From Desulfocapsa sulfexigens DSM 10523 (GTDB lineage: Bacteria > Desulfobacterota > Desulfobulbia > Desulfobulbales > Desulfocapsaceae): a stretch of 32,000 nucleotides of DNA. How positions within the stretch are numbered: the first letter of the stretch is position 1; every line of letters begins with the position of its first letter. The stretch is from contig NC_020304.1 of assembly GCF_000341395.1 (NCBI RefSeq), forward strand, positions 630,001-662,000. Reading direction: 5' to 3'. Positions 10,849-29,294 of the stretch are shown one piece after another. Both the position numbers and the translations under genes were made by a program. The notes beneath the pieces were generated by a model. The model saw only the letters and a list, made by a program, of their open reading frames with translations. It had not been told where the DNA came from and did no database searches.

Positions 10849-10850
10849 AC

Positions 10851-13646: not shown

Positions 13647-13791
13647 CTCTTTTTGTCGGTAACGTGGATTTTACCACTATGTGTCGAATCGCCATTTTCA
13701 TTATTTCATCCAAGCCGCTCCAGTATTCACAACAGAGAATAGTCTCTTTCTACGCGACGAACTGTATGAATCTCAGTATACAATAAAAACC

Positions 13792-14697
13792 ATGAACAAA
13801 TTTATCATTGCAGGAATAGGTGAACTTCTTTGGGATGTTTTAGAGGAGTCCGAGGAACTGGGTGGCGCACCTGTCAATTTTTCTTATCATGCAAATAGCT
13901 TGGGTGCAAAGGGCTACGCCATCTCGACCGTGGGGGATGACAGGCGTGGAAAAGCAGCCTTGGCAGTACTGGAAAAACGAAAGATGTCGACAAGGTACAT
14001 TACCGTTCGTAAAGGAGCTGTTACCGGATATGTGCTTGCCAATGTGGATGACAAAGGTGTCGCATCGTATTCTTTTCCTGATGACGTGGCCTGGGATCAC
14101 CTAACGTTGGCTGAACCGACCCTGTCCCTGGCAAAAGAGGTGGATGCCATCTGTTTCGGCAGTCTTGGACAACGTTCCCCCAAGGCGCGCCTGGCAATTG
14201 TTTCATTTTTACAGGCTACCCGACCTGATACCCTTAGAATTTTTGACATCAATCTGAGACAGCATTTCTACACCACTGAAATAATACAGAATTCTCTAAA
14301 ACTAGCGAATGTTCTAAAATTAAACAACGAAGAACTCGAGGTGCTTGGAGTCATAAACGACATCAAAGGTGATGAACGTTCTCTCCTGAAAAAACTGGTA
14401 GAGAAATATAACCTGCAGTTAGCGGTCCTCACCCGCGGTGGGAAGGGGAGCCTTTTAGTATCCCCTGCTGAAATATCCAGTCATCCTGGGTGCCCCACCA
14501 ATATCGTGGACACCATAGGTGCCGGCGACTCCTTCACTGCTGCAACTGCTCTTGGCTTATTAAGAGGATACCCCCTGTCAACGATCAACGATCACGCAAA
14601 CAGAGTTGCAGCATTTGTCTGTTCCCAAAAAGGGGCTATGCCGTTGTTACCAGTGGACCTGCGGGAAAACATATCCAAGACTGTACAATTAAGTTGA
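13792..14697 (+). CDS. Fructokinase / PfkB-family sugar kinase
   Basis: I trimmed the track ORF (GTG at 13681) to the ATG at 13792, giving MNKFIIAGIGELLWDVL. The PfkB signatures GGAPVNF and TIGAGDSFTAA (catalytic Asp) are present. The position after sps-spp-ams fits a fructokinase role. Confidence 0.8.
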   Translation: MNKFIIAGIGELLWDVLEESEELGGAPVNFSYHANSLGAKGYAISTVGDDRRGKAALAVLEKRKMSTRYITVRKGAVTGYVLANVDDKGVASYSFPDDVAWDHLTLAEPTLSLAKEVDAICFGSLGQRSPKARLAIVSFLQATRPDTLRIFDINLRQHFYTTEIIQNSLKLANVLKLNNEELEVLGVINDIKGDERSLLKKLVEKYNLQLAVLTRGGKGSLLVSPAEISSHPGCPTNIVDTIGAGDSFTAATALGLLRGYPLSTINDHANRVAAFVCSQKGAMPLLPVDLRENISKTVQLS

Positions 14698-14740
14698 ACT
14701 GTTTCTCAATGAAAAACAGTTGCACAGACACGAGGCAAAA

Positions 14741-16105
14741 ATGAGCAATGAAAAAACTTCCTGGCAACAGGTCGCTGAACTGATCACCGCGAAAAACAGT
14801 GCAGCCCTGCTTGAATACATTGATACCCTGAGTCCATCCGAGACGGCAAGAACCATTTCACGGCTTCCGGAAGAGACACGACTCCAGCTCTTCACTCTTC
14901 TCAGTCCCGAAGATGCCGCCGATGTTATTGAAGATATCCCCGAAGCTCAGGCTGCAGATCTGGTGGAGGAAATGCCATCGAATCAGGCGGCTGCCATTAT
15001 GGAGGAGCTGGACAGCGATCACCTTGTCGATGTTCTCGGGGAGATGGATGAAGACACCAGTCGGGCAATCCTTGCAGAGATGGACCAGGAAGAGGCCAGA
15101 GAGGCCCGGATGCTCCTTGAGTACGATTCGGATTGTGCCGGTGGACTGATGATTTCTGAGTTTCTCTCCTACACGAGCGACAAAACTATCCAGGATGTAC
15201 TCGACGACATGCAGGCCAACCGTGAAGAGTATGGCGGATACCATGTCCAGTATTTTTATGTTGTTGATCGAAAAGGAAAACTGAGTGGAATCCTTCAGAT
15301 GCACGACCTCCTTTTTCCTTCGCGAAAAACACCTCTTTCTCAGATAATGATCAGCTCGCCCTTGAGCGTCTCAGACAAGGCATCGCTTGCCGAACTGGAA
15401 GATTTCTTTGAAGAACATCACTTTTTTGGCGTGCCTGTTGTCGACGAAGAAAAGCGGCTTGTGGGAGTGGTATTGCCTGGAGCCATTGAAGAGGCGGTCA
15501 ATAAGCGAAAGACAAAAAACTTCCTCAACCTGAGCGGCATTGTCGGCGGTGAAGAGTTTCGAACCATGCCTCTGCTCACCCGTTCCGGTCGCAGGCTCTC
15601 CTGGCTAAGTGTTAATATCGTTCTCAATATCATGGCCGCAAGTGTCATTGCCATGTACCAGGACACCCTGGCAGCAGTAATCACCCTGGCAGTTTTTCTG
15701 CCCATGGTCAGTGACATGAGTGGCTGTTCCGGCAACCAGGCCGTAGCTGTTTCAATGAGAGAACTTTCGCTGGGACTCGTCCGTCCAGGGGAGATTCTGT
15801 GGGTACTGGCCAAGGAGGCCAGAGTGGGTATAATTAATGGTGCTGTCCTGGGAGTACTTCTAGGCTCCATTGCCTATTTCTGGAAGGGCAATGCCTGGCT
15901 CGGCCTCGTAGTGGGTGGAGCCCTGGCTGCTAACACCCTGGTATCTGTCACTCTGGGTGGTATGTTGCCCCTGCTTCTCAAACGGTTAAAACTTGACCCT
16001 GCCCTGGTTTCCAGCCCCCTGCTGACAACAGTCACCGATATGTGCGGTTTCTTCTTTGTTTTAAGTTTTGCCGCTGCAGTACTGCCAAAACTTGGAGGCA
16101 TGTAA
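14741..16105 (+). CDS. mgtE: Magnesium transporter MgtE
   Basis: It has an acidic MgtE_N domain (EDAADVIEDIPEAQAADLVEEMP...AAIMEELDSD), a CBS pair, and a C-terminal five-TM MgtE domain with PLLTTVTDMCGFFFVL. I prefer the ATG at 14741 to the track's TTG at 14720. Confidence 0.9.
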   Translation: MSNEKTSWQQVAELITAKNSAALLEYIDTLSPSETARTISRLPEETRLQLFTLLSPEDAADVIEDIPEAQAADLVEEMPSNQAAAIMEELDSDHLVDVLGEMDEDTSRAILAEMDQEEAREARMLLEYDSDCAGGLMISEFLSYTSDKTIQDVLDDMQANREEYGGYHVQYFYVVDRKGKLSGILQMHDLLFPSRKTPLSQIMISSPLSVSDKASLAELEDFFEEHHFFGVPVVDEEKRLVGVVLPGAIEEAVNKRKTKNFLNLSGIVGGEEFRTMPLLTRSGRRLSWLSVNIVLNIMAASVIAMYQDTLAAVITLAVFLPMVSDMSGCSGNQAVAVSMRELSLGLVRPGEILWVLAKEARVGIINGAVLGVLLGSIAYFWKGNAWLGLVVGGALAANTLVSVTLGGMLPLLLKRLKLDPALVSSPLLTTVTDMCGFFFVLSFAAAVLPKLGGM

Positions 16106-16486: not shown

Positions 16487-18481
16487 ATGCTCTCTCTTTT
16501 TAAATCTATTCGCGGTAACGTCTTTGCTTACCTGGTTCTCCTGGTCTCAATATATTCCTTTTCCAATTATTTCATTATCAACCTGATTGTTTCACCAAGT
16601 CATATAGCGGTGGAACGTCAATTGGCCCAAGAGGAGATGGAGCGTTTTACCGAAGCTCTACTGCGAGAAGGAGAAGCACTGGGAGTTCTCGCCCATGACT
16701 GGTCGGCATGGGATGACACCTACGAGTTTGTGCAAAGCAGATATCAGGAATATATCACCTCAAATCTTCCCAACACCACCTTCACAAATGGAGGGCTGAA
16801 TCTCCTCCATTTCTTTCGCCCCGATGGCTCTCTTGTGTGGAGCAAACTTCTCGACCTTGAAACTGAAGAAGAAATATCACTCACCGAATTCCCTTCAACC
16901 GGACTACCAGGCGATCATCCTTTATTGCACCATCCTCGCCCAGACAGTGCCATCAATGGATTCGTCAAAACAGAACTCGGCCCGATGCTTGTTTCCTCTC
17001 ACCCCATCATCACCAGCGAAAATACCGGGCCAATTGCAGGAACACTGATCTTTGGCCGCCTCCTCACGGAACGGCTGATGACAAAACTCAGGAAACAAAC
17101 CAAGGTTCGATGTCGCCTCATCAACCTCAGTGATCCCAATGAACTGGCAACTCTCCCTATTAATATCTCATCACTTGGGCCGGACACTCCTTATGGCTAT
17201 CATATCACCGCAAACAAAATAATTATTTTCAGTACATTTTCTGATTATCAGGGTACCCCAGAATGGCTCCTGGAAGTACACGCCGATCGTCTGATCACTT
17301 CGCAGACCAGTGAACTAATGCGCTTTGTCGTGTTTTCTAACATCGGTATCGGCCTTGTCATCATCATCCTGTTCCTTCTCCTCTACCGTTACCAGCAGAG
17401 GCTTGCAACTTCCACATTTCGAGATGTAATCAACCAGTTTTTCCAAGATAAAACTCAAGGGAGGCAAAAAAAACCGATCCTCGATACTTTTAGCACTGAC
17501 GAATTTTCCGAACTCGGACAGGACCTGCGTTTAATGATCGCCAGTTTTGAACAAACAGACAAAGACCAGAAAAACATCATCAACAGACATAGCATCTCGC
17601 TGCGACAACTGAATAACAAACTGGTTGACGAGATTAAGGAACGTCTGCAGATTGAAAAAGACCTCCATGCAATCCAAAAAAATCTTGAAAAACAGGTAAA
17701 ACAAAGAACCTTTGAACTCCTGGAAACAAATAGTGTCCTGCAGAGGGAGATTGAAAGAAGGAAGGGGAAAGAGAAGGAACTGATAAAACATCGAAAGCGC
17801 CTTCGTTCCCTTTCATCGGAACTCATGGAGATGGAAGACAGGGAGCGACGTCAACTCGCAACTGACCTTCATGACCAGATAGGCCAGTCCCTCTCTGCTG
17901 TCAAAATGTACGCGGATGCTCTTATTGCATCTGCATCGCATAAAAGCAGCAAAGAAAAACTTGAACTGATCGCAGATATTGTCGCTGAAACAATTCAGGA
18001 TGTCCGCACCCTCACCTTCGAATTAAGCCCACCCATTTTATATGAGATCGGTCTCCATGCTGCCCTTGACTGGCTTGCAGAAGAATTCCTCCAGAAATAT
18101 GGTCTTATAATCACCTCCACCTGCGATGAATGTCCGAAATGTACAACTCCTGCCTTTCTGGCCCTCATTTTTCGGACAATTCGGGAATTGCTGACAAATG
18201 TTGTCAGACACGCCAATGCAGAGAAAGCTGAGGTCGAAGTGCGATGTACAGGTAAGGGGGTACGGATTACCGTAAAGGATGATGGTTGCGGTATGGTAAA
18301 AGAACAGCTAAATAACGAAGACTCCCCGAACACTGGCTTTGGCCTTTTCAGTATCCGGGAAAGGATAAACAATATCGGCGGTACGGTGGAAATTAATTCC
18401 ACAAAAGATGTCGGAACAGAAATAATTCTCACAATTCCAATCAAAGAGGCCTGCGCTGAATCCGGCAGGACAGAGCAATGA
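16487..18481 (+). CDS. Sensor histidine kinase: periplasmic CHASE4-like domain, TM helix, coiled coil, HisKA_3 and HATPase_c
   Basis: 664 aa. The N-terminal TM is followed by LAHDWSAWDDTYEFV, which is CHASE4-like. A second TM (VVFSNIGIGLVIIILFLLLY) and a K/E-rich coiled coil follow. The H-box is DLHDQIGQSLSAVK (NarX/DegS-type HisKA_3), the N-box is ELLTNVVRHANA and the G-box is DDGCGM...GFGLFSIRER. Confidence 0.9.
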   Translation: MLSLFKSIRGNVFAYLVLLVSIYSFSNYFIINLIVSPSHIAVERQLAQEEMERFTEALLREGEALGVLAHDWSAWDDTYEFVQSRYQEYITSNLPNTTFTNGGLNLLHFFRPDGSLVWSKLLDLETEEEISLTEFPSTGLPGDHPLLHHPRPDSAINGFVKTELGPMLVSSHPIITSENTGPIAGTLIFGRLLTERLMTKLRKQTKVRCRLINLSDPNELATLPINISSLGPDTPYGYHITANKIIIFSTFSDYQGTPEWLLEVHADRLITSQTSELMRFVVFSNIGIGLVIIILFLLLYRYQQRLATSTFRDVINQFFQDKTQGRQKKPILDTFSTDEFSELGQDLRLMIASFEQTDKDQKNIINRHSISLRQLNNKLVDEIKERLQIEKDLHAIQKNLEKQVKQRTFELLETNSVLQREIERRKGKEKELIKHRKRLRSLSSELMEMEDRERRQLATDLHDQIGQSLSAVKMYADALIASASHKSSKEKLELIADIVAETIQDVRTLTFELSPPILYEIGLHAALDWLAEEFLQKYGLIITSTCDECPKCTTPAFLALIFRTIRELLTNVVRHANAEKAEVEVRCTGKGVRITVKDDGCGMVKEQLNNEDSPNTGFGLFSIRERINNIGGTVEINSTKDVGTEIILTIPIKEACAESGRTEQ

Positions 18482-19119
18482 CAATAAAAATCATTGTGGT
18501 CGACGACCACAAAATAGTCCGAGACGGACTCTGTTCACTTATTGAAGGACTTTCCGGATACACTATAGTAGGCAGAGCAGAAAATGGAAGACAGGCCATC
18601 GAGGTAGCACGCCGGGAAAAACCCGATATCGTCATTATGGATGTGAGCATGCCCGAGATGAACGGCATCGATGCAACAAGTTCTATCATGGAGGAAAGAC
18701 CTTCCTGTAAAATCATTGTCCTCTCCATGCACTCTGACAAACGCTTTATTACCGGTGCTCTCCAGGCCGGAGCTTCTGGATTTCTTCTTAAGGAATGTGC
18801 ATTCCAGGAACTCAACCAGGCACTGGATGCCGTCCGCAGCGGACAAACCTACCTTAGTCCTAAAATTGCTGGTACTGTTGTCCACGATTACCGAAGGCGA
18901 CTGCTCTCTGAAGATAAAGAGAAAGCCCTCACCACAAAAGAACGTGAAGTACTGCAGCTCATAGCTGAAGGACGATCAACCAAAGAAATAGCCGACCGTC
19001 TCTTTGTCAGTATCAAGGCTATTGAAGGAAGACGAAGACGGCTCATGGAAAAACTGCAGATCACGACAATGGCAGGTCTTGTCAAATATGCCATTCGTGA
19101 AGGGCTCACTGAACTCTAA
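18478..19119 (+). CDS. Response regulator, NarL/FixJ (LuxR-type HTH) family
   Basis: 213 aa. The REC domain has VVDDH and DIVIMDVSMPEMNG. The C-terminal LuxR HTH reads LTTKEREVLQLIAEGRSTKEIADRLFVSIKAIEGRRRRLMEKL. The start overlaps the kinase stop by 4 nt (ATGA). Confidence 0.95.
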   Translation: MTIKIIVVDDHKIVRDGLCSLIEGLSGYTIVGRAENGRQAIEVARREKPDIVIMDVSMPEMNGIDATSSIMEERPSCKIIVLSMHSDKRFITGALQAGASGFLLKECAFQELNQALDAVRSGQTYLSPKIAGTVVHDYRRRLLSEDKEKALTTKEREVLQLIAEGRSTKEIADRLFVSIKAIEGRRRRLMEKLQITTMAGLVKYAIREGLTEL

Positions 19120-19427: not shown

Positions 19428-20348
19428 ATGCAGACAATATTTTTCATCCTCTTATTTTTCCTTACAGGGAACACAGCAGTGCTGGCAGAGTCTCTACAGC
19501 CAAAGGAACCTCTCTTTATAAATCCGAATGTGACGACTGAAACCAATATTCATTTCGATAGTAATTACTGTACCGAATGTCACCTGCAGAAACCATCCAA
19601 GGGGGACTCCGTACAGCTGAGATTCGACAACTATACCACGGCCTGCAGATGTCATGGGTACACTCCTGACACATACACCCATCCTGTGGACATAGTGCTT
19701 TCTGCAGAAAAAAAGGCCACTATTCCGGCAGAATTCCCTCTTACAAATGACAAAATCACCTGCGACACCTGCCATAACATGGCACTGCAATGTGAACCAA
19801 AGTACGAGTTGCGACTTCACAACAAGGCATTTTTACGAACAAACTCCTCCCTGGGCCGAACATTTCTCTGCTTTCAGTGCCATGAGGAAGAGCAATACAA
19901 AATGTTTGACCCCCACAAACAACTGGATGCGTCAGGGGCTATAAATGAAGAATCGTGCCTTTACTGTCATGCAAGCAAACCAGATGAACAGCAGGCAACT
20001 TTCAATTCACAGAACAACGGAGAAGACAGCATCCATCTTGTCGGCAACCTGGAGATACTTTGTCTGCGTTGCCACAACGACAAGGCCGGCAACCACCCCC
20101 TGAATAGAAATCATCTGGTCAAACCATCAGAAAAAATCATTTCACGAATGCACTGGTCGGAAAGAAATCTCTGGATCGTGCTGCCCCTGAACAACGAGGG
20201 AAAAATCACCTGTATCACCTGCCACAACCCACACGAACACGGAGTCATTCCCACAGACAAGGCAGCATCTGCCGGAGCAAGCGAAAAAGGCAGACTGAGA
20301 AAGGCATGGGGAGGAGGAAGTATTTGTGTGGTATGTCACAACATCTAA
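19428..20348 (+). CDS. Periplasmic multihaem c-type cytochrome with 7 CXXCH motifs and one degenerate ACRCH site
   Basis: 306 aa with a signal peptide ending AVLA-ES. The CXXCH motifs are CTECH, CDTCH, CFQCH, CLYCH, CLRCH, CITCH and CVVCH. ACRCH lies at nt 19641-19655. The HPVDI and NHPL distal-ligand-like motifs are shared with the 18-haem paralogue. Confidence 0.9.
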   Translation: MQTIFFILLFFLTGNTAVLAESLQPKEPLFINPNVTTETNIHFDSNYCTECHLQKPSKGDSVQLRFDNYTTACRCHGYTPDTYTHPVDIVLSAEKKATIPAEFPLTNDKITCDTCHNMALQCEPKYELRLHNKAFLRTNSSLGRTFLCFQCHEEEQYKMFDPHKQLDASGAINEESCLYCHASKPDEQQATFNSQNNGEDSIHLVGNLEILCLRCHNDKAGNHPLNRNHLVKPSEKIISRMHWSERNLWIVLPLNNEGKITCITCHNPHEHGVIPTDKAASAGASEKGRLRKAWGGGSICVVCHNI

Positions 20349-20361: not shown

Positions 20362-21426
20362 ATGAGATTGAAGTCACGTTCCCGGCCACTTTGGCCCCTT
20401 AGTATCCTCACACTGCTTGTTATTTACTTCCTGCCCGCAGGCGCGCAGGGATCAGATGTCGGTAACTGCCTGCTCTGTCATAAATACCCGGGACTAAGCA
20501 GGGTTGATGAAAATGCAGAAATGCGGCTTCTCTATGTAAATGAAGAAATTTTCAACCAAAGTGTCCACGCAAAGGTAAAATGTGAGGGATGCCACACTGA
20601 TATCACCAAGATCCCCCATGAACCGGTCAAACCTGTGGACTGTCTGGTACTCTGTCATATCATTGAACCGGCAGAGGAGCAGAAGTTTTCTCACAAGAGT
20701 GTTGAAAAATTCCTGGCCGACAGTGTTCACGGCAAGATGGACGAACATGGCAAAGAAAAGCCTTTCAGTGAAGACATGCCGACCTGTAAGGACTGCCATG
20801 ATAATCCGATGTTCAGACCCCTTGCATTTGTCAAAAAGGTGAGACCCGGTATTGCTGAAGATGCCCTGGGACGCTGCCGAGTCTGTCACAAAAAAGAAGA
20901 ATTCATCTACAGATTTTACAATCACGTCACCACCAGGCTGCACAAGAGCAGAAGTCCGCTCAATATTGCAGAGTCCTGTGCCAGATGCCACGATGACCCG
21001 GAACTGGTGGCCCGACACAACCTCTCCACCATGGCCAGAGGTTCCTATGGGCAGACTTTTCACGGCAAGGCGGCCAACCTCCTGGACGAATCGGTTCCAG
21101 ACTGCCTGGACTGCCACGTACCCAAGGGACAATCCGTACACCAGATGCACGGCAATGATGACATTCGTGCCACCACCCATCCGGAGAACAGAGGACAAAT
21201 TTGTGGATCCGTGGACTGTCACCCAGGTGCCTCCCAACAGTTTGCAAATTATCAGGTCCATGCGGAATTTAACAAGGAACAGAGCCCGGTGATCTACTGG
21301 TTCACCACCTTCTTCATCATTCTCACCGGTGCTACCCTGCTTCCTTTGATGGGAATACTGTTTCTTGATCTGCTTCGCCGCCTGTTTCCCAATGCATCTT
21401 TTAGACGGAGGAAAGAGAAACCATGA
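20362..21426 (+). CDS. Membrane-anchored multihaem c-type cytochrome (6 CXXCH plus CX3CH and CX4CH, C-terminal TM helix). CbcA-like by architecture.
   Basis: I trimmed the track ORF to the ATG at 20362, which follows AAGGAGAG. The signal peptide is MRLKSRSRPLWPLSILTLLVIYFLPAGAQG. The motifs are CLLCH, CEGCH, CKDCH, CRVCH, CARCH and CLDCH, plus CLVLCH (20641-20658) and CGSVDCH (21202-21222). The C-terminal hydrophobic helix is VIYWFTTFFIILTGATLLPLMGILFLDLL, followed by RRLF...RRRKEK. Confidence 0.9.
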   Translation: MRLKSRSRPLWPLSILTLLVIYFLPAGAQGSDVGNCLLCHKYPGLSRVDENAEMRLLYVNEEIFNQSVHAKVKCEGCHTDITKIPHEPVKPVDCLVLCHIIEPAEEQKFSHKSVEKFLADSVHGKMDEHGKEKPFSEDMPTCKDCHDNPMFRPLAFVKKVRPGIAEDALGRCRVCHKKEEFIYRFYNHVTTRLHKSRSPLNIAESCARCHDDPELVARHNLSTMARGSYGQTFHGKAANLLDESVPDCLDCHVPKGQSVHQMHGNDDIRATTHPENRGQICGSVDCHPGASQQFANYQVHAEFNKEQSPVIYWFTTFFIILTGATLLPLMGILFLDLLRRLFPNASFRRRKEKP

Positions 21427-22325
21427 AAAAATATCCAGCAATAAAGTTCAAGGACGGAAAAAAATACTTTTTCCGATTTGATCTGGACACAAGAATCCAG
21501 CATATCATCCTGGCGGCAACAGTCATTATACTGGTTCTGACAGGGATGCCTCTCAAGTTCAGTGATAGTAGCTGGGCTCCTTATCTCTACTCTTTTTTCG
21601 GTGGAAGCAAGATGGCTCCGGTAATACACAAATGGACCGGTGCCATCATGCTTCTCCTCTTTGTTTACCATGTTGTGCGAGTAGTAGGCGGCATCATAAC
21701 GAATCATATCATGCCCCTTAAAAGAGAAGGGAAAATGAGTATAGGCAGGGTCACCATGGTACTGGTCAGACTCCCCATGATTCCAAACCTGAAAGATCTG
21801 AAAGATATCATAGGACTGATGAAATACCTGCTCTATTTCACCAATGAGCACCCGCATGGCGATGAATGGACCTGGAAGGAAAAGTTTGATTACTGGGCAC
21901 CATTCTGGGGTATGTTTGTCATCGGTATCACCGGCCTCATCATCTGGAACAAGGTACTGGCAACCCAGGTCATACCAGGTGAATTTATCAACCTCTGCCT
22001 GATAGCTCACAGTGACGAGGCATTACTGGCGGCACTCTTTCTCTTTATCTGGCACTGGTATAACGTCCATTTTTCCACTTCTGTCTTCCCGATGGGTACA
22101 GTCTTTCTCACCGGTTATCTTCCTGAAGAGCTGATGGTTGAAGAACACTACGAGCATTACGTAAGAGTGATGACCAGGGAAGGATTGGAATCTGAGATCA
22201 AACCGCCCCACGGTGGCGGCAATAATCCGACAATCTGCGGGGAACCACAGGATGTCACCTCGGATACTCCACCAACCACCGCACCAGCCAATGATCCCAT
22301 GCAGCAGGGAGGAGTCAACTCATGA
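21423..22325 (+). CDS. Integral-membrane b-type cytochrome (FdnI/HydC/PhsC-like cytochrome b561 fold). Candidate quinol-interacting subunit.
   Basis: 300 aa with at least four TM helices: IQHIILAATVIILVLTGMPL, HKWTGAIMLLLFVYHVV, YWAPFWGMFVIGITGLIIW and CLIAHSDEALLAALFLFIWHWYNVHF. Histidines sit in TM1, TM2 and TM4 (two in TM4), as expected for two b haems. There are ATGA overlaps with both neighbouring genes. Confidence 0.75.
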   Translation: MKKYPAIKFKDGKKYFFRFDLDTRIQHIILAATVIILVLTGMPLKFSDSSWAPYLYSFFGGSKMAPVIHKWTGAIMLLLFVYHVVRVVGGIITNHIMPLKREGKMSIGRVTMVLVRLPMIPNLKDLKDIIGLMKYLLYFTNEHPHGDEWTWKEKFDYWAPFWGMFVIGITGLIIWNKVLATQVIPGEFINLCLIAHSDEALLAALFLFIWHWYNVHFSTSVFPMGTVFLTGYLPEELMVEEHYEHYVRVMTREGLESEIKPPHGGGNNPTICGEPQDVTSDTPPTTAPANDPMQQGGVNS

Positions 22326-23242
22326 AATGCTTTTTTACCAAGCTCTATGTTCTTGCTTTTATGGGACTGGTCGCCTTTTTCGGTGTGCTCATCTGGAATT
22401 TGACATTTGCCCATCTTATCCATGAATACCATGCAAGACAAGGAGATGTAACAATTACTCCCAGCGGAGAGAATGACAAAAAAGATGTCGGGAATCAAAC
22501 ATTTGACAAGATGATTCTTGAAAGTGAGGATCGGGTCAAACACTATCTCGGCTACCGGGTACTGGAAGAGCAGAGAATAGAAGGACATTTTCACCATATC
22601 GGCTTCGATGTCGGACCCGACAACAGATCCTACTGCAGATCCTGCCATGGCGACATGCCTCACGACTCAGTCAAAGATATTCGGGCATTTTTGAATATGC
22701 ATGCCTTTTTTGTGGCCTGCCAGACCTGCCATGTCAAGCTGACTGATGATGAAAGAACAAACGTCTACAAATGGTATGACCGAAAAACCGGAGAAATTGT
22801 TGAAAGCCCGGTCAATGGAGCTCCACCGGGGACCTACAATGCAAAAATTGTCCCCTTCATTCGTGAAGACGGCAAACTTGTCCGCATCGACAGCGAGGAA
22901 AAAATCCAGTTCGCCACTGACTACAAGACAAATGAAAAGGCGTTGAGCGAAGGCCAGAAATCCAAGGCAAAGAAGATTATCCACCAGATTATCAGCAAGC
23001 TGCCTGTAAGCTGTGAAGAGTGCCACACCAAGAACAATCCTACTCTTCCCCTTGCCGATCTTGGCTACCCCAAGGCCCGGATCGATTCCATCACCAGTAC
23101 AGAGGTGGTGGGAATGATAAAGAACTATACGGAGTTCCATATGCCAAAGATGTTAAACCCAGGCGAAGTATCGCCTGCTGCGCCACAACAGACCGAACTG
23201 CAGCCGCAACAGATGGCGGAACCACAACCAACACAGCATTGA
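22322..23242 (+). CDS. N-terminally membrane-anchored trihaem c-type cytochrome
   Basis: 306 aa. The N-terminal TM is LYVLAFMGLVAFFGVLIWNLTF, with no obvious cleavage site. It has three CXXCH motifs (CRSCH, CQTCH, CEECH) and a Pro/Gln-rich C-terminal tail, PAAPQQTELQPQQMAEPQPTQH. Confidence 0.85.
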   Translation: MKCFFTKLYVLAFMGLVAFFGVLIWNLTFAHLIHEYHARQGDVTITPSGENDKKDVGNQTFDKMILESEDRVKHYLGYRVLEEQRIEGHFHHIGFDVGPDNRSYCRSCHGDMPHDSVKDIRAFLNMHAFFVACQTCHVKLTDDERTNVYKWYDRKTGEIVESPVNGAPPGTYNAKIVPFIREDGKLVRIDSEEKIQFATDYKTNEKALSEGQKSKAKKIIHQIISKLPVSCEECHTKNNPTLPLADLGYPKARIDSITSTEVVGMIKNYTEFHMPKMLNPGEVSPAAPQQTELQPQQMAEPQPTQH

Positions 23243-23254: not shown

Positions 23255-24217
23255 GTGAACAGATATACCTCACCTGAGTGGTATAAAAGAAGAAGGAGAA
23301 TAGTCACCATTTCTATTCTCCTTTTGCTTACGGCCTGGACATCCGCCGCCCATGCACTGGAGCTGACCATGGCAACACACCTCTTTGATATAGAGGAGGA
23401 ATTCAACCAGCCAAGTGATGTAGCCGTTGCCAGGAACGGTACCATCTATGTGGTTGATGGGGTGAATGGCAAAATCAAGGCATTTTCACCTTCCGGAAAA
23501 CCACTCTTCACTATCGGTCGACCAGGAACCGATCCCGGCGAATTTGCCTTTCCCCTTGGTATTGGACTGGACGAATCTGGCAGAGTCTATGTTGCCGACT
23601 CCAGAAATAGCCGGATCCAGATATTTTCTGCCACAGGCGATTTCATCTCTGAAATTCCGGTTCCAGCCCTGAACGGAGAAAAATCCGACCCAACCGATGT
23701 GGTCGCGGACAGTTCCGGAAAATGGTGTTTTGTGGCAGACAACAATAATCATCGGATTCTCCAATTCGATATTGCCACAAAAAAGCTCATCAACAGCTAT
23801 GGAAAACCCGGGGCTGAAAAATGGGAATTCCGCTATCCCTTTCTCATGCACCTCCATCGGGATAAAGACCTGTACATTGTTGATGTCATCAATACCAGAG
23901 TACAGGTTCTGAATACAGAGGGGAAGTTCGTCACCTTTGTCGGGGGCTGGGGTGTTGAAAAGGGCCATTTTTTCAGACCAAAAGGGATTACTGTGGATAA
24001 AAATGGACTCTCCTATGTCAGTGACAGCTATATGGGAGTAGTTCAACTCTTCAATATTACCGGCACCTTTCATTCAGTCCTTGGTGACCCGACAACGGGT
24101 AAGGTGAAGAAGTTCGTAACACCTGTTGGGCTCTTTATTGACGATGCCATGCACCTCTATGTTGTGGAGATGCTTCCAGGCCGGATCAGTGTTTTCAGCC
24201 TGGAAAATATGCCATGA
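23255..24217 (+). CDS. NHL-repeat beta-propeller protein, secreted/periplasmic (NHL-1)
   Basis: 320 aa from a GTG start with no clear RBS, so the start is uncertain. The signal-like N-terminus is KRRRRIVTISILLLLTAWTSAAHA. NHL blades recur: PSDVAVARNGTIYVVDGVNGKIKAF, PLGIGLDESGRVYVADSRNSRIQIF, PTDVVADSSGKWCFVADNNNHRILQF, LYIVDVINTRVQVL, PKGITVDKNGLSYVSDSYMGVVQLF and PVGLFIDDAMHLYVVEMLPGRISVF. Confidence 0.85.
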   Translation: MNRYTSPEWYKRRRRIVTISILLLLTAWTSAAHALELTMATHLFDIEEEFNQPSDVAVARNGTIYVVDGVNGKIKAFSPSGKPLFTIGRPGTDPGEFAFPLGIGLDESGRVYVADSRNSRIQIFSATGDFISEIPVPALNGEKSDPTDVVADSSGKWCFVADNNNHRILQFDIATKKLINSYGKPGAEKWEFRYPFLMHLHRDKDLYIVDVINTRVQVLNTEGKFVTFVGGWGVEKGHFFRPKGITVDKNGLSYVSDSYMGVVQLFNITGTFHSVLGDPTTGKVKKFVTPVGLFIDDAMHLYVVEMLPGRISVFSLENMP

Positions 24218-26436
24218 TCAGATCCCGTGCCTGCATCCTGATCCTGCTTTTCAGCAGCATGCTTTTTTACTCTCTCCCATGCCTTGCCAATCAGGCACCT
24301 CGCAACCCGAATTCGGCCAAGGAATGTGCGATCTGTCACTATCGATGGATAGATACTTTTTTTATTGATGGCAGGGGCACTGACCTTGTGCCCTATCAGG
24401 AGACTAAGGTGGTCGCAGAGCCCGAAATCTGTTTTTCCTGCCATGACGGCAGTGTGGCAGACTCAAGGGGAAAGGTGTACAACGACCATCGCCACCCCAT
24501 CAACAAACCACCACCACCAGGGATGGAAATCCCAGCCATCTTTCCCCTGGATGAGCATGGAAACATGCAGTGCTTTACCTGCCACACTGCCCATGGAGTG
24601 TCCAGTGAAATGGGGATTGAACGGGCAGTTTTTGTCCGCACATCCAACGATAATTCTTCCATGTGCATGATGTGTCACAAGGGCAAGGATGGTGGGCCTG
24701 CCATGGGCAACCATCCCATTGGCACAACAGAACGACCAATACCTGACAACCTTCTCAATCTCGGGAGTATCGAAGGGTCTGTCACGAATCAGATCATCTG
24801 CCAGACCTGCCACAATGTTCATGGCTCACCCTTTGACAATTTTCTCGTTGAAAACAACAGAGATTCAGGCCAGCTCTGTCTGGACTGCCACCAGGAAAAG
24901 GGCGGTCTGCTAAACAGCGGGCATGATTTACGGCGCACGGCAGCGGAGGCCAAGAACAGCAAGGGACAGCCCCCGGTACAGTCAGGGATATGCGGTGCCT
25001 GTCATCTGGTGCATGGAGCAGAAAAGACAGTACTCTGGGCCCGACCACTTCCTGCTAAGAGTAAAAACAGAACCCAGGATCTGTGCACTAGCTGTCACAG
25101 CAAAACAGGGCTGGCCTCTGAAAAACTCATCAAGGGATATTCTCATCCCGTTAACATTTCTCTTCGGGACAAGGGGATGCGACCTGACCTGCCTGCCTTT
25201 GATCTCACTGGCCGGCGCGTTCAGCAAGAGGCTAAGGACGCACTGCTCACCTGCCCCACCTGCCACGATCCACACCAGGCAGGAACTGCCAGGCAGGCCA
25301 CAATGACCCCGCCCCGTTCAAGTTTTCTTCGGGTAAAGGATGGAAAAGCTGAAAGCCTGTGTAAGCAGTGCCACAGCAAACAGGCATCTGTTGTGGGAAG
25401 CGATCATGACCTGCGAAAGACAGGTGCCACAACAAAAAATACTCAGGGGCAACTGCCTGGCGAGTCAGGACCATGCGGCGTCTGTCATCTTGTTCACGGA
25501 GCACAGACAAAAAACTTATGGGCTCGCAAGGTCTCGAGCAAAAGTGCCTATCCGGCACAGGATCTCTGTCTGACCTGTCACAACAGCAAGGGTGTCGCCA
25601 ATACAAAAGTCATCGCTGACCACTCCCATCCCGTTGACATCAATCCTGAAAAACGAAACATCAGTACTACTCTGCCGCTTTACGACAGTCATGGAGAAAG
25701 AAAATCCAATGGCGTTATAGCCTGTCTGACCTGCCATAATCCACACCAATGGCATCCTAGAAAGCCGACCTCCCACGGAAACAATCATGTTGAGGGAAAC
25801 GCAAAAAACAGCTTTCTCCGTCTTGCCGCCGCACCAGAACCTGCACTGTGCAGCAATTGTCACCCTGAAAAAGCGTATGTGGAAAAGAGTGACCACGACC
25901 TCAACATCACAGCACCCACTGCAACAAATACCATGGGGCAGATCCCGGAAGAATCCGGGGTCTGCGGTGTCTGTCACATCATCCATAATGGAAAAAACAC
26001 GGTACGACTCTGGGCTCGTAACTATGGAGCAGGTAAAGGCATTATGGATAGAATGTGCAACAGTTGTCATACAGATGGGGGATCCGGCAGTAACAAGGTA
26101 CCTGTGGTTTCCACCCATCCGGAAAAACAACTCATCGCTAATCCGGGAAGAAATATCAAAGGAAAGGCAAATTATTTTCCACTTTTTGACGACGAAACGG
26201 CATCACCTATTACCATCGGCGATATTTCCTGTGCCTCATGCCATGATGTGCACCAATGGGATCCCAAAAAGAAACAAAAGGGGAATGGGGAAAATCCTGA
26301 GGGGAAAGCTACCAATAGTTTTTTACGCATGCAGACCTACAACATGATCTGCAAAGACTGTCATGGACTTGATTCCCTGTACCGATTCAAATATTACCAT
26401 GACAGTAAGAAAAGAACACCCATTTCCACCCCATAA
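24214..26436 (+). CDS. Large periplasmic or extracellular multihaem c-type cytochrome with 18 CXXCH motifs
   Basis: 740 aa with the signal peptide MIRSRACILILLFSSMLFYSLPCLA. The 18 motifs start at residues 38, 73, 120, 151, 196, 222, 260, 291, 347, 383, 421, 452, 504, 546, 584, 615, 673 and 713. The start overlaps the NHL-1 stop (ATGA). Confidence 0.95.
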   Translation: MIRSRACILILLFSSMLFYSLPCLANQAPRNPNSAKECAICHYRWIDTFFIDGRGTDLVPYQETKVVAEPEICFSCHDGSVADSRGKVYNDHRHPINKPPPPGMEIPAIFPLDEHGNMQCFTCHTAHGVSSEMGIERAVFVRTSNDNSSMCMMCHKGKDGGPAMGNHPIGTTERPIPDNLLNLGSIEGSVTNQIICQTCHNVHGSPFDNFLVENNRDSGQLCLDCHQEKGGLLNSGHDLRRTAAEAKNSKGQPPVQSGICGACHLVHGAEKTVLWARPLPAKSKNRTQDLCTSCHSKTGLASEKLIKGYSHPVNISLRDKGMRPDLPAFDLTGRRVQQEAKDALLTCPTCHDPHQAGTARQATMTPPRSSFLRVKDGKAESLCKQCHSKQASVVGSDHDLRKTGATTKNTQGQLPGESGPCGVCHLVHGAQTKNLWARKVSSKSAYPAQDLCLTCHNSKGVANTKVIADHSHPVDINPEKRNISTTLPLYDSHGERKSNGVIACLTCHNPHQWHPRKPTSHGNNHVEGNAKNSFLRLAAAPEPALCSNCHPEKAYVEKSDHDLNITAPTATNTMGQIPEESGVCGVCHIIHNGKNTVRLWARNYGAGKGIMDRMCNSCHTDGGSGSNKVPVVSTHPEKQLIANPGRNIKGKANYFPLFDDETASPITIGDISCASCHDVHQWDPKKKQKGNGENPEGKATNSFLRMQTYNMICKDCHGLDSLYRFKYYHDSKKRTPISTP
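24877..26349 (+). repeat. Three tandem intragenic repeats, each about 160 aa and four haems, inside the 18-haem cytochrome
   Basis: The units are aa 222-382, 383-545 and 546-712 (nt 24877-25359, 25360-25848, 25849-26349). Each follows the pattern C..CH-(x)-S.HDL-(x)-G(Q)(x)P.(E)SG.CG.CH..H(x)...LWAR-(x)-C..CH-(x)-(S/T)HP-(x)-C..CH(D/N)(P/V)HQ-(x)-NSFLR (SSFLR in unit 1). The repeats are conserved at protein level and diverged at DNA level. Confidence 0.85.
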
Positions 26437-26743: not shown

Positions 26744-27376
26744 ATGAAAAGACTAGTAATTGGCGTTCTGGCTTTAATTGGCAGCACCGGGATATGCTCA
26801 ACAGCATTTGGAGTAATAACAGGATCGGATCATGACTTCAGTGGGTCAAACTGGAGTAGTGGACAAATTTGTCTGCCCTGTCACGCACCTCATAACGGAA
26901 CAGTTATCGCTGATGCTCCCCTATGGAATCATGATGTCTCAGAGGCCAGCTATACCCTGTACTCCAGTGCCACCCTCGATGCCGATGATCTTTCACAGCC
27001 CGCCGGCGTCTCAAAGCTCTGCCTTTCCTGCCATGACGGAACCGTTGCTATCGATGCCTTTACTGGCCATGACGGTACTATTTTTATAGGAACAATCGGA
27101 ACAGGCAGTGGAGATCTTGGCTCAGCCCTGAATAATGACCATCCCGTATCTTTCACTTATGACAGTGCCCTTGCTACCGCAGACGGTGGTCTTTGGGATC
27201 CAAGCTCAAAAAGTTCAGGAATAACAGAGGGTGGTACAATTGATAGCGACATGCTTTTTGCCGGACGGATGGAATGTGCATCCTGTCATGATGTTCATAA
27301 TAAATATGAGAACACGAGTCTTCTCTTAATAGATAACGATGGCTCTAACCTCTGCCTCACCTGCCACAACAAGTAA
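26744..27376 (+). CDS. Small secreted tetrahaem c-type cytochrome
   Basis: 210 aa with the signal peptide MKRLVIGVLALIGSTGICSTAFG. It has 4 CXXCH motifs (CLPCH, CLSCH, CASCH, CLTCH) and six further His residues (SDHDF, APHNG, LWNHD, TGHDG, NDHPV, DVHNK). The spacers are Gly/Ser/Thr/Asp-rich and look loop-like. GAGAGGA lies 6-7 nt upstream of the ATG. Confidence 0.9.
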   Translation: MKRLVIGVLALIGSTGICSTAFGVITGSDHDFSGSNWSSGQICLPCHAPHNGTVIADAPLWNHDVSEASYTLYSSATLDADDLSQPAGVSKLCLSCHDGTVAIDAFTGHDGTIFIGTIGTGSGDLGSALNNDHPVSFTYDSALATADGGLWDPSSKSSGITEGGTIDSDMLFAGRMECASCHDVHNKYENTSLLLIDNDGSNLCLTCHNK

Positions 27377-27468
27377 CAGGACAATCCGCCATAGGCTGTC
27401 TTCCGTCTGCCCATGCACGTCACGTGTGTGGGTGGACTTTGTTGTTTTCACGGTACCACTTAAAAACC

Positions 27469-28548
27469 ATGCAAAAACCATATCGTTTCTCAGACACACA
27501 GCTGTTATTTCCCCTCCTCTGTCTGCTACTCCTGAGCAGTTGTGCCAGGCCGGTAGAAGAAGCAGCACTCATTTTCTACCCACCACCACCAGAACGCCCG
27601 AGACTTCAGTTTCTCACAGCCATCTCCTCGGAAACAGACCTGGCAGTCAAAAGAGATGCCTTTGACAGCTTTCTCTTTGGTCCCGACCTGTCCTTTTCCT
27701 CCATCGGTCGCCCCTACGACATAGCCTCAGACAGGGGAAGCATCTACCTTATTGACCGTCAGTCCAACAAGATACTCACCATTGATCTGGTGAACAAGGA
27801 CTTCACCGAACTACGAGCCACCGGACGGGGGGCACTCCGTTCCCCGTCAGGTATCTGGGTCACCTCGGATGGCTTCAAGTACATTGCTGACATAAAACGC
27901 CAGCAGATTGTCACCTTCAACAGCAGTAATGAGTTCATCCGTGCCTACGGTAATAAAGAGCTGTTTAATAAACCGGTTGATGTTGCTGTTTATAACAACA
28001 ACATCTATGTCTGCGACATGGTCAAAAGTCAGATCATTGTCCTCGACAGAGATTCGGGAGAAGTCGTTATGACCGTTGGGGAGAGTGGATCCGAAGAGGG
28101 GCAGCTGCATAAGCCGACACATGTAACAGTGGACAAACATGGAAATGTTTTTGTCAATGACGCCTTTAATTTTAGAGTCCAGCAATTTGACAGTTCTGGA
28201 GTATTTGTGAAAACTTTTGGCTTCCACGGAGACCGCATGGGAGGAATGGCCAGAAGCAAAGGGCTGGATGTAGATCAGGAAGGAAATTTGTATGTGGCGG
28301 ATGCGGCCTTTGAATATGTACAGATTTTCAACAAAGACGGTCAACTGCTCCTTTTCTTCGGTGGCCCTGGAAATGCTCCTGGAAATATGTACCTTCCGGC
28401 CGGGGTCCATATTGATTATGAGAACATCCAATTCTTCAATACATTTGCAGACCCGAATTTCAAACTGAAATACCTCCTCTATGTGTGCAATATGAGTGGT
28501 TCAAATAAGGTCAATGTCTATGGATATGGAGACTGGAGCGGTGAATAA
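27469..28548 (+). CDS. NHL-repeat beta-propeller lipoprotein (NHL-2)
   Basis: I trimmed the track ORF (GTG at 27424) to the ATG at 27469, giving MQKPYRFSDTQLLFPLLCLLLLSSC with the lipobox LSSC. A PPPPERP linker follows. NHL blades include PYDIASDRGSIYLIDRQSNKILTI, PSGIWVTSDGFKYIADIKRQQIVTF, PVDVAVYNNNIYVCDMVKSQIIVL, PTHVTVDKHGNVFVNDAFNFRVQQF and GLDVDQEGNLYVADAAFEYVQIF. Confidence 0.85.
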   Translation: MQKPYRFSDTQLLFPLLCLLLLSSCARPVEEAALIFYPPPPERPRLQFLTAISSETDLAVKRDAFDSFLFGPDLSFSSIGRPYDIASDRGSIYLIDRQSNKILTIDLVNKDFTELRATGRGALRSPSGIWVTSDGFKYIADIKRQQIVTFNSSNEFIRAYGNKELFNKPVDVAVYNNNIYVCDMVKSQIIVLDRDSGEVVMTVGESGSEEGQLHKPTHVTVDKHGNVFVNDAFNFRVQQFDSSGVFVKTFGFHGDRMGGMARSKGLDVDQEGNLYVADAAFEYVQIFNKDGQLLLFFGGPGNAPGNMYLPAGVHIDYENIQFFNTFADPNFKLKYLLYVCNMSGSNKVNVYGYGDWSGE

Positions 28549-28598: not shown

Positions 28599-29294
28599 AT
28601 GCACAAAATTTCCATCCACATAGTAATGATGTTTTTTCTAACAGCTTCCCTCAGCGGATGTGAAGCGAAAAAACAGCATGAAGTGCTTACCTTTTTCTTC
28701 ACCGGGGTTCCCCCCTTGGAGGAAACAGCTGCTGTAACAAGTGATCAGGAACTTCAGGATGTACGGGAGACAACGCCGGGGCCAAAAACTGTACAGGTTC
28801 AAACCCTCTATTCCCACCCGGTATGGGCCGCCGGCGTCTGCGACCCATGTCATGGAAGTACGGGAACATTCAGCACTCCCGGGGTCCAGAAACAACCTCA
28901 AACAGTCTTCAAAACAGGTGGCGGTATGCCTGGTGAACTCACCCTGCCGAAAACGAAACTCTGCATACAATGCCACAGAGACAAAACACCTTTACGGGCA
29001 CTTACAGAACGACTCTGGCTACATAACACAACGGCAAAAGGGGATTGCATGGCATGTCACGATCCCCATCAGAGCAAGAATAAAAACACCTTGCGAAAGC
29101 CACCGGTAAAAATCTGTCTTTCATGCCATGAAAATGGGACTTTTATGGCAACACCAGCCCACCAGACAGGAGAAGACTGCCTTTCCTGCCATACTCCACA
29201 CATGGGCCTCAATAAAAATTTACTCAAAAACGAATATCAGGAGCAGAAAACGCCAGCGCTCCAAATCCCAGAGACAATGGTACAGGGTCGGTAA
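28599..29294 (+). CDS. Pentahaem c-type cytochrome lipoprotein
   Basis: 231 aa with a canonical lipobox (LTASLSGC). It has 5 CXXCH motifs: CDPCH, CIQCH, CMACH, CLSCH and CLSCH. Confidence 0.9.
   Translation: MHKISIHIVMMFFLTASLSGCEAKKQHEVLTFFFTGVPPLEETAAVTSDQELQDVRETTPGPKTVQVQTLYSHPVWAAGVCDPCHGSTGTFSTPGVQKQPQTVFKTGGGMPGELTLPKTKLCIQCHRDKTPLRALTERLWLHNTTAKGDCMACHDPHQSKNKNTLRKPPVKICLSCHENGTFMATPAHQTGEDCLSCHTPHMGLNKNLLKNEYQEQKTPALQIPETMVQGR

Follow-up and report, generated by a model that had tools for sequence, protein, structure and literature searches.

In the window, i.e. the 32,000 nucleotides of Desulfocapsa sulfexigens DSM 10523 DNA analysed here, three consecutive genes on the forward strand encode subunit A (20362-21426), a predicted eight-haem cytochrome c with six CXXCH motifs, one CX3CH and one CX4CH, subunit B (21423-22325), a putative dihaem cytochrome b of the FdnI/HydC type, and subunit C (22322-23242), a three-haem cytochrome c with three CXXCH motifs and an N-terminal anchor. 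The genes are chained by ATGA overlaps at both junctions, the stop codon of A overlapping the start codon of B at 21423. The coordinates, overlaps and motifs given in the original prediction were thus all reproduced. A and B are separate genes in all 54 of the closest loci, and in every one of them the two genes either overlap or lie no more than 6 nt apart. Of 53 loci, 33 show a 4-nt overlap at the B-C junction and another 7 an overlap of 1 nt. This spacing is kept across related loci, indicating that the overlaps are not due to chance.

The operon extends beyond positions 20362-23242 on both sides, and all neighbouring genes described here lie on the forward strand, too. The first gene of the tightly packed operon (19428-20348) encodes a seven-haem cytochrome c with a signal-like N-terminus (7 CXXCH; Pfam Cytochrome_C7 and Paired_CXXCH) and ends 14 nt before the start of A; a homologue (48-80% identity) is located directly upstream of A in Desulfobulbia-type loci. 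On the other side, 12 nt separate the end of C from a gene encoding an NHL-repeat six-bladed beta-propeller protein with a signal-like N-terminus (23255-24217, Pfam NHL E 4.9e-22), which overlaps by 4 nt the gene for a 740-aa cytochrome c with 18 haem motifs (24214-26436, 18 CXXCH; Pfam Paired_CXXCH and MtrC/MtrF domain II/IV). Upstream of the operon we detected a sensor histidine kinase (16487-18481; Pfam CHASE4, HisKA_3 and HATPase_c), which is likely the regulator of the cluster, and, overlapping its gene, a LuxR/GerE-type response regulator (18478-19119; Pfam Response_reg and GerE). In the related Desulfocapsaceae/Desulforhopalus loci L004-L011 homologues of the kinase (59-65% identity) are directly upstream as well, and the response regulator is 83-94% identical.

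Further downstream, a tetrahaem OmcE homologue of the cytochrome-nanowire subunit type is encoded at 26744-27376. In a phmmer search against the PDB it matched over its full length 7tfs_A, a 232-aa tetrahaem 'Cytochrome c' which we take to be OmcE of G. sulfurreducens (E 2.4e-24), and also 9yuq_N (E 3.5e-20). It is followed by genes for a beta-propeller lipoprotein (27424-28548), a five-haem cytochrome (28599-29294), a 688-aa protein that is possibly an outer-membrane barrel (29335-31401) and for which no family or PDB match was found, and a second propeller lipoprotein (starting at 31405). With the 688-aa protein as the putative barrel, this gene content matches the 'smallest OmcE cluster' of a recent preprint (10.1101/2025.10.22.684050), the compared cluster type comprising a tetrahaem OmcE homologue, two beta-propeller lipoproteins, two multihaem cytochromes and a large outer-membrane protein.

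Subunit B (300 aa) contains four hydrophobic helices and passes the cut-off of PF01292 (Ni_hydr_CYTB; 36.0 bits against 30.1, aa 18-212). Five histidines, His27, 69, 83, 196 and 211, are invariant in 14 homologues, and in a profile alignment H27, H69, H196 and H211, located in TM1, TM2 and, the last two, TM4, correspond to the haem ligands H18, H57, H155 and H169 of FdnI. The original prediction had described a cytochrome b with at least four TM helices and four intramembrane His and had proposed alignment of these His with FdnI as a check; all four ligands align with invariant His of B. FdnI (1kqf_C) was the sole match of the B profile in the PDB and, in a Foldseek search with a low-quality AlphaFold model of B (pLDDT 58), the top and sole significant hit (E 3.4e-4, TM 0.62 on target). 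B is accordingly predicted from its sequence as a four-helix cytochrome b of FdnI-like topology with both termini in the cytoplasm, which fits the positive-inside counts (7 K+R at the N-terminus and 10 in the TM2-3 loop, compared to 1 and 0 in the periplasmic loops) as well as the natural fusions described below. Compared to E. coli FdnI (1KQF chain C), whose four-helix bundle it is predicted to share and whose four haem-ligating His coincide in position with its own, B is only about 16% identical and exhibits a longer TM2-TM3 loop and a C-terminal extension of about 85 residues, made up of a conserved cytoplasmic domain (aa 215-264) and a variable tail. The Pro/Gln-rich tails of B and C had been suggested to act as flexible tethers, a reading that our data do not support. 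Both tails differ in sequence and length between orthologues, many of which lack them; the tail of B is predicted to be cytoplasmic, and its position is taken in natural B-C fusions by a short linker to the anchor helix of C.

Many homologues of B are named 'formate dehydrogenase subunit gamma' by JGI and NCBI, and TIGR01583 gives a match to B, so that B might be the gamma subunit of a formate dehydrogenase or hydrogenase with the cytochromes as mere neighbours. The TIGR01583 score of 51 is, however, far below the cut-off of 116, no formate dehydrogenase or hydrogenase catalytic genes were found in the 32,000 nt of the window, and neither the window nor the related loci inspected contain genes for molybdopterin, Fe-S or NiFe subunits. 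FdnI has an Fe-S protein and a molybdoenzyme as partners, whereas B always has the cytochromes c A and C on either side, and fusions of B with these occur in other organisms. We regard a gamma subunit as extremely improbable. The annotation of B under this name, and of C mostly as 'hypothetical protein', misleads genome-based metabolic reconstructions.

Subunit A (354 aa, ATG start, with AAAGGAGAGAAG just before the start) carries a signal-like hydrophobic segment at its N-terminus (aa 10-28). The CXXCH motifs start at aa 36, 74, 142, 172, 206 and 248, the CX3CH motif CLVLCH at aa 94 (nt 20641-20658) and the CX4CH motif CGSVDCH at aa 281 (nt 21202-21222). A hydrophobic helix spans aa 317-335, and the chain continues with RRLFPNASFRRRKEKP. 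A is thus predicted to be periplasmic, with a C-terminal membrane helix and the basic tail on the cytoplasmic side. In E. coli formate dehydrogenase-N (1KQF), FdnH, the partner for electron transfer on the periplasmic side, is likewise attached through just one C-terminal helix.

Conservation of the variant motifs in orthologues had been named beforehand as a point on which their significance depends. The pattern of 6+1+1 motifs is present in 52 of 55 A orthologues, and every motif Cys and His is invariant wherever the alignment column is occupied. In an alignment with fused relatives of the CbcL type, CX3CH corresponds to haem 3 and CX4CH to haem 9, both of which are ordinary CXXCH motifs there; a paralogous module contains CX3CH at both variant positions. 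By these alignments, the two motifs are genuine haem-site positions, and we infer that they are loaded with haem.

The relationship of A and B to these fused proteins is collinear. A matches residues 1-381 of a 667-aa fused protein of Thiocapsa marina (25% identity, E 7e-21) and B residues 396-630 of the same protein (39% identity, E 8e-52); 7 of the 8 motifs of A are aligned with it by BLAST and all 8 by MAFFT. The length and CXXCH positions of the T. marina ORF used are those given for ThimaDRAFT_0301/WP_007191179.1, which is listed in the table of the CbcL/MtoC/MtrH family (Zhong and Shi 2018). The link to Geobacter CbcL runs via this table and the published identity of about 35% between CbcL and MtoC/MtrH. 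Judged by homology, A and B together are a split homologue of the fused CbcL/MtoC/MtrH family, and the view that the architecture matches no named complex has to be given up. The members of this family, quinol oxidases or quinone reductases, link the quinone pool of the membrane with electron-transfer chains that lead out of the cell.

As in CbcL (G. sulfurreducens GSU0274), MtoC and MtrH, a homologous haem-c domain is followed in the same order by an FdnI/HydC-type b domain, the c domain and the b core are joined by a helix, all four His positions for the b haems and an extra conserved His in TM2 are present, and the genes adjoin those for other multihaem cytochromes and outer-membrane proteins. 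CbcL has been described as containing nine c haems and a six-helix HydC/FdnI-like domain. The helices of A, B and C also add up to six (1+4+1), the anchor of C corresponding to the sixth helix by position only. In contrast to the fused proteins, the c and b domains are located here on separate polypeptides, and there are eight haem sites instead of nine, haem 7 of the fused proteins having no counterpart; two of the eight are spaced CX3CH and CX4CH. Furthermore, the place of the sixth helix is taken by the anchor of a third protein, C, with a three-haem periplasmic domain of about 270 residues that is absent from the CbcL type. The linker helix of the fused relatives contains a conserved W-T/L/I-H, the His of which is described for CbcL, too, whereas the helix of A is devoid of His, as are those of the orthologues inspected, which were every third sequence in the alignment of 55. 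The chemistry of the membrane domain may therefore differ.

The trio had originally been called CbcBA-like, and the architecture bears this out: CbcBA of G. sulfurreducens (GSU0593-0594), a proposed menaquinol oxidase for extracellular respiration, shows the same two-gene layout, with a separate cytochrome c carrying a C-terminal helix just 5' of a four-helix dihaem cytochrome b. Nevertheless, we consider it very unlikely that the module is an orthologue of CbcBA with one extra subunit. CbcA contains seven haems and contributes a b-haem His from its C-terminal domain, whereas A has eight motifs and no helix His in the orthologues shown, and B supplies all four ligands itself. CbcBA is controlled by a sigma-54/BccR system, unlike the CHASE4 kinase and LuxR-type regulator encoded next to the genes described here, and lacks a third anchored cytochrome. 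Finally, the homology of B to the CbcL/MtoC/MtrH b domain is clear, yet according to the literature CbcB and CbcL are not homologous in sequence.

Among the best 150 cluster representatives we found 59 A-B, 8 B-C and 7 A-B-C fusions, the gene order always being kept, and two of the triple fusions were confirmed on their contigs as intact ORFs. The natural occurrence of B-C and A-B-C single chains indicates that A, B and C very probably form a single complex, and the products look like the module postulated originally, a b-type cytochrome flanked by two oppositely anchored multihaem cytochromes c. In A and in C alike, the membrane helix belongs to the best conserved regions of the protein. A-B-C is kept in 51 of 55 related loci, most of which carry the NHL protein and a cytochrome of about 18 haems as well; the NHL gene follows C in 28 of the 55 loci and is nearby in most others, and the pair of NHL protein and multihaem cytochrome is conserved across related loci. 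The trio is present in about 50 species-level genomes from several phyla. The single-chain forms are ready targets for structure prediction or cryo-EM, and such structures could show how electrons are handed over from the b haem to the c-haem wire and which role the extra three-haem domain plays.

Subunit C (306 aa) contains a hydrophobic helix (aa 10-28), CXXCH motifs at aa 105, 133 and 231, an invariant GHFHH (aa 88-92), the invariant H114, H127 and H221, and a variable C-terminal tail. No Pfam family matched C, which is annotated as hypothetical; most of its 466 homologues are unnamed or 'hypothetical', a few are named 'cytochrome c', and nearly all are without a Pfam family. C is a new part of the module, absent from all characterised Cbc-type enzymes. 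Aa 101-180 show weak similarity to octahaem tetrathionate reductase (1sp3, E 0.0014), and there are six invariant His beyond the three haem motifs, including those of GHFHH, when three would suffice as distal ligands. In addition, the closest relatives are found in Desulfocapsa-type MAGs, and Desulfocapsa is a sulfur-disproportionating group. C might on these grounds be a small reductase of a soluble periplasmic substrate, e.g. a sulfur or nitrogen oxyanion, making the module a quinol-dependent enzyme instead of a relay. Yet the similarity is marginal and spans an ordinary stretch with two haems, a low-quality AlphaFold model (pLDDT 56) gave no fold match, and the steady partners of the module are propellers, very large cytochromes and genes of the OmcE or porin type. 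A catalytic function of C is highly improbable in our opinion.

Taken together, A, B and C are likely to form one inner-membrane complex connecting the menaquinone pool with periplasmic multihaem cytochromes, i.e. a quinol:cytochrome c oxidoreductase of the CbcL/MtoC/MtrH type split into three polypeptides. The role as a menaquinol:cytochrome c oxidoreductase of the Geobacter Cbc kind, put forward in the original prediction, is the best functional reading of these sequence data. In such a complex B would provide an FdnI-like four-helix core with two b haems, one bound by His69/His196 near the periplasm and the other by His27/His211 near the cytoplasm, and, by analogy with FdnI, the quinone site. 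A would act as an eight-haem periplasmic wire fastened to B through the conserved helix at its C-terminus, and the last haem of A (CX4CH, about 30 residues before the helix) would be the likely contact with the outer b haem. C would be anchored by its conserved N-terminal helix at the place of the sixth helix of the fused proteins, and its three periplasmic haems may serve as a second branch or docking point. Along this conjectural haem-to-haem path, electrons could pass on to the co-encoded seven-haem cytochrome and to the NHL propeller and 18-haem cytochrome, and in D. sulfexigens finally to the putative outer-membrane OmcE-type nanowire system encoded directly downstream. [quoted passage not shown]

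To our knowledge, inner-membrane quinol oxidases for extracellular electron transfer are known through genetics from no more than a handful of model bacteria, mainly Geobacter and Shewanella (ImcH, CbcL, CbcBA, CymA). A-B-C is a candidate for this step in Desulfobulbia, Desulfobacterales, Thermodesulfovibrionia-type Nitrospirota and other mostly uncultured anaerobes, groups that matter for sulfur-iron cycling, corrosion and syntrophy. B could serve as a marker gene because it is unusually conserved (58-68% identity between phyla).

The direction of electron flow we prefer is outward, from menaquinol oxidation to an extracellular acceptor. The quinone site of FdnI is on the cytoplasmic side and conserves energy with electrons moving inward; with such a site in B, outward flow would oppose the membrane potential. 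The same complex might thus work in reverse, transferring electrons from an extracellular or periplasmic donor (mineral, cathode, partner cell or Fe(II)) to menaquinone; such a role has been proposed for MtoC of Fe(II) oxidisers. MtoC is regarded in the literature as a candidate quinone reductase, and no sequence feature separating the two directions was found there. Chromatiaceae, Thiobacillus, Ramlibacter lithotrophicus and Beggiatoa-like bacteria harbour the nearest fused relatives. We nevertheless consider reverse flow unlikely. Most carriers are anaerobic Desulfobulbia, Desulfobacterales and Thermodesulfovibrionia-type MAGs, and the adjacent OmcE-type cluster is tied to electron export (10.1101/2025.10.22.684050).

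Outward flow is also favoured by a probable counterpart induced with Fe(III) oxide as acceptor. In Desulfurivibrio alkaliphilus, DA_2140 is a 364-aa membrane cytochrome with 8 haems, 6 of them in CXXCH motifs, and DA_2141 is a 'CbcL-like' protein of 582 aa with 3 haems; both were induced about 8-fold during reduction of ferrihydrite compared to nitrate (Nature 2025, PMC12545173). Based on lengths, haem counts, adjacency and annotation, DA_2140 probably corresponds to A and DA_2141 to a B-C fusion. As in D. sulfexigens, the genes are adjacent and overlapping, multihaem cytochromes are encoded nearby, and the host belongs to the Desulfobulbales. B and C are apparently fused in D. alkaliphilus and split in D. 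sulfexigens, and the neighbours differ, too, being a porin-cytochrome set in the former and the NHL protein, the 18-haem cytochrome and the OmcE cluster in the latter.

The three genes of the cytochrome module lie on the + strand and encode subunits A (20362-21426, 354 aa), B (21423-22325, 300 aa) and C (22322-23242, 306 aa), with ATGA overlaps at both the A-B and the B-C junction. The A gene has an ATG start with a good ribosome-binding site upstream. Its product exhibits a signal-like N-terminus, six CXXCH motifs, the variant motifs CLVLCH (aa 94) and CGSVDCH (aa 281) and a basic tail after a hydrophobic helix (aa 317-335). B contains four hydrophobic helices and scores above the cut-off of Pfam PF01292 (36.0 bits vs. 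30.1), and C carries a single N-terminal helix and three CXXCH motifs. The ORFs, motifs, helices and overlaps of the original prediction were all reproduced exactly in the window sequence, and the packed unit exceeds the span first reported on both sides. A gene encoding a 7-haem cytochrome (19428-20348) ends 14 nt before the start of A, and an NHL propeller gene (23255-24217) begins 12 nt after the end of C and overlaps by 4 nt with the gene of an 18-haem cytochrome (24214-26436). Promoter and terminator scans yielded background values (21 vs. 16.3 expected and 13 vs. 13 expected, respectively) and did not define the operon ends. Genes for a CHASE4 histidine kinase and a LuxR-type response regulator (16487-19119) are located just upstream of the operon. 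This pair is found directly upstream in all close relatives (loci L004-L011), with 83-94% identity of the regulator, and its retention there suggests a dedicated, signal-dependent control of the cytochrome operon.

B is annotated publicly as formate dehydrogenase gamma subunit. This label is misleading, since no formate dehydrogenase or hydrogenase genes were detected around A-B-C; B furthermore reaches a score of only 51 against TIGR01583 (cut-off 116). A profile built from B and 13 homologues and searched against all PDB sequences matched a single one, FdnI (1KQF chain C). His27, His69, His196 and His211 of B align with His18, His57, His155 and His169 of FdnI, which are its haem ligands, and these four residues as well as His83 are invariant in B and the 13 homologues. 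The haem-b ligating histidines expected for a cytochrome b of this type are therefore all retained. FdnI was also the only significant fold match of an AlphaFold2 model of B, which is of low confidence (pLDDT 58, shallow alignment), and the charge counts of B agree with the FdnI topology, with both termini in the cytoplasm.

In the original prediction the architecture could not be matched to a named complex. We found that A and B match the CbcL/MtoC/MtrH family of fused multihaem-c and cytochrome-b proteins. A Thiocapsa marina ORF agrees in length and, with an offset of one residue, in its CXXCH positions with ThimaDRAFT_0301/WP_007191179.1, which Zhong and Shi (2018) placed in this family. 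A aligns to residues 1-381 of the T. marina protein (E 7e-21) and B to residues 396-630 (39% identity, E 8e-52). Because both are collinear with this family member, A and B are, judged from their sequences, a split protein of the CbcL/MtoC/MtrH type. The published description of CbcL (nine c haems, a six-helix HydC/FdnI-like domain, about 35% identity to MtoC/MtrH) fits this picture. The likeness to Geobacter CbcBA proposed there is one of architecture alone. CbcB is reported to be non-homologous to CbcL, and CbcA has seven haems and donates one b-haem histidine; the helix of A is free of histidine. Further candidates were rejected. Geobacter Cbc4 (CbcSTU) contains an Fe-S protein which is absent from this locus. 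NHL or propeller partners also occur in the PCC3, Uet and D. ferrophilus cytochrome islands, which, as described, lack such a b-c module.

The variant haem sites of A proved to be conserved. The set of six CXXCH motifs with a single CX3CH and a single CX4CH recurs unchanged in 52 of 55 A orthologues from related genomes; the other three exhibit fewer motifs and are probably incomplete ORFs. All motif cysteines and histidines are invariant among the 55 wherever the alignment column is occupied. By alignment, the CX3CH site corresponds to haem 3 and the CX4CH site to haem 9 of the fused proteins, where ordinary CXXCH motifs are found; nothing in A corresponds to haem 7 of these proteins. A Nitrospiraceae MAG (CP070632, locus L001, 519-13260) carries two complete tandem sets of A, B, C, NHL and 18-haem cytochrome genes sharing just 29-41% identity; in its second copy of A, both variant sites are CX3CH.

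In a scan of one genome per species, from which the best 80 loci were listed and the 55 closest analysed, a relative of B was detected in at least 530 genomes. The complete trio is present in 51 of the 55 closest loci, the others missing one gene, some of them at contig ends. These loci belong to Desulfocapsaceae, other Desulfobulbia, Desulfobacterales, Nitrospirota and Thermodesulfovibrionia, Verrucomicrobiota, Deferribacteres and Nitrospinaceae MAGs. In none of them does the A-B junction exceed 6 nt, and a 4-nt overlap joins B and C in 33 of 53 loci. More distant loci encode A and B as a single protein (about 660-720 aa, nine CXXCH motifs, six helices), e.g. in Thiocapsa marina, Lamprocystis, Ramlibacter lithotrophicus and Thiobacillus. 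A search with the Ramlibacter fused protein revealed a homologue with 67% identity in a Rhodoferax sp. MAG and, among its matches, none of the named reference strains. Downstream of the fused CbcL/MtrH-type gene of R. lithotrophicus (locus L078, 8666-18981) are two small cytochromes whose motif counts (3 CXXCH and 1 CX3CH) are NapC/NirT-like, and two ten-haem cytochromes, an arrangement resembling the published Rhodoferax mtrH-cymA-mtr cluster.

C is the portion of the module without a described counterpart. Its 466 detectable homologues are mostly unnamed or hypothetical, a few being annotated as 'cytochrome c', and hardly any of them belongs to a Pfam family. The N-terminal helix, a GHFHH motif, His114, His127 and His221 are invariant. 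The sole external similarity is weak (E 0.0014) and concerns a segment of octahaem tetrathionate reductase with two haems, and an AlphaFold2 model (pLDDT 56, shallow alignment) gave no meaningful fold match.

A b-domain profile search over 1.84 billion cluster representatives yielded 2361 clusters at E <= 0.001, the best 150 of which were classified with HMMs of A, B and C. B stood alone in 65 of these representatives and was fused to A in 59, to C in eight and to both in seven; in the remaining 11, B or A-B was joined to a different haem domain. In every fusion containing C the domain order equals the gene order. The triple fusions retain the six CXXCH, CX3CH and CX4CH motifs, followed by a helix, the b domain, a second helix and the C domain; for two of them an intact ORF is present on an assembled contig. 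These natural B-C and A-B-C fusions in gene order are a strong Rosetta-stone argument for the three proteins working as one complex. Their layout also fixes the predicted topology as periplasmic A, helix, four-helix B, helix and periplasmic C. By position only, this suggests that the sixth helix of CbcL-type proteins corresponds to the anchor of C. The Pro/Thr/Gln-rich tails of B and C, previously regarded as flexible tethers, vary in sequence and length and are missing from many orthologues; the tail of B is predicted to be cytoplasmic, and the same position is a short linker in B-C fusions. These features do not support the tether reading.

Further arrangements were observed. A B-C fusion from a Thermodesulfobacteriota MAG (P0375, MDY6862651.1) bears a C-terminal SUMF1/EgtB/PvdO (formylglycine-generating-enzyme-like) domain. 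Both contigs with triple fusions (a 1015-aa protein in L087, a 908-aa protein in L088) contain a second fused b-c gene, of 1049 aa in L087 (8001-19048) and of 621 aa in L088 (264-6648), the latter followed by a 273-aa C-like gene. L087 additionally encodes a protein of at least 831 aa combining multihaem motifs with NHL repeats.

The 18-haem cytochrome gene is followed by the gene of a tetrahaem cytochrome (26744-27376), a clear homologue of the nanowire subunit OmcE that matches over its full length PDB 7TFS (OmcE of G. sulfurreducens, E 2.4e-24) and also matches 9yuq (E 3.5e-20). Downstream are genes for a propeller lipoprotein, a five-haem cytochrome, a 688-aa protein of no known family (29335-31401), a second propeller lipoprotein and another large cytochrome. 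This set of genes resembles the minimal OmcE nanowire cluster of a 2025 preprint (10.1101/2025.10.22.684050). In at least a dozen other loci, too, this OmcE-like gene is found no more than 10 kb away from A-B-C. The 688-aa protein starts with a signal-like segment and matches no Pfam family or PDB sequence. Its gene is kept beside the OmcE-like and propeller genes in several loci, and the protein may be a large outer-membrane barrel. A strong hairpin on the + strand (27405-27437; 15 pairs, 8 G-C, then a T-rich run) sits between the OmcE-like gene and the next one (gene-caller start about 27469), possibly a terminator or attenuator behind a highly expressed subunit gene.

The best-supported function of the complex is that of a quinol:multihaem-cytochrome oxidoreductase with 2 b and 11 c haems. 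B would hold the membrane haems and, by analogy with FdnI, a quinone site. The last haem of A (CX4CH, about 30 residues ahead of the helix) would be the likely partner of the outer b haem, and C may form a second periplasmic branch or a docking site. In Desulfurivibrio alkaliphilus, DA_2140 (WP_013164302.1; 364 aa, membrane, 6 CXXCH, 8 haems in total) and DA_2141 (WP_013164303.1; 582 aa, 3 haems, annotated 'CbcL-like') show expression values of about 310-390 in ferrihydrite-reducing cells, compared with 110-125 in cells disproportionating sulfur and about 40 in those using nitrate (PMC12545173). From length, haem counts and annotation we infer that they correspond to A and a B-C fusion. As to the direction of electron flow, which the sequence itself does not fix, the expression in D. 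alkaliphilus and the OmcE neighbourhood favour the outward one, by which electrons would be passed to extracellular acceptors; an inward flow like that proposed for MtoC is less likely.

The family is known already, and published work has given a probable relative the label 'CbcL-like'. No description was found in the searched papers of the split into three polypeptides, of the conserved non-canonical haem sites, of the anchored three-haem subunit C with its fusion series or of the conserved association with the NHL propeller and 18-haem cytochrome. Likewise, no description of the module was found in the searched literature on Thermodesulfovibrionia, Seep-SRB1 or CbcL together with NHL.

Elsewhere in the window, a sucrose metabolism cluster (8698-14697) encodes a sucrose-phosphate synthase fused to a phosphatase domain, a separate sucrose-6-phosphate phosphatase, an alpha-amylase-family enzyme and a PfkB sugar kinase, and is followed by an MgtE gene (14720-16105). 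A group of envelope genes (571-7546) comprises a LolA-like protein, a MacB/FtsX-type ABC transporter pair, a GNA1162-like lipoprotein, an OmpA-family protein and, as the last gene, an omptin-family outer-membrane protease (6551-7546).
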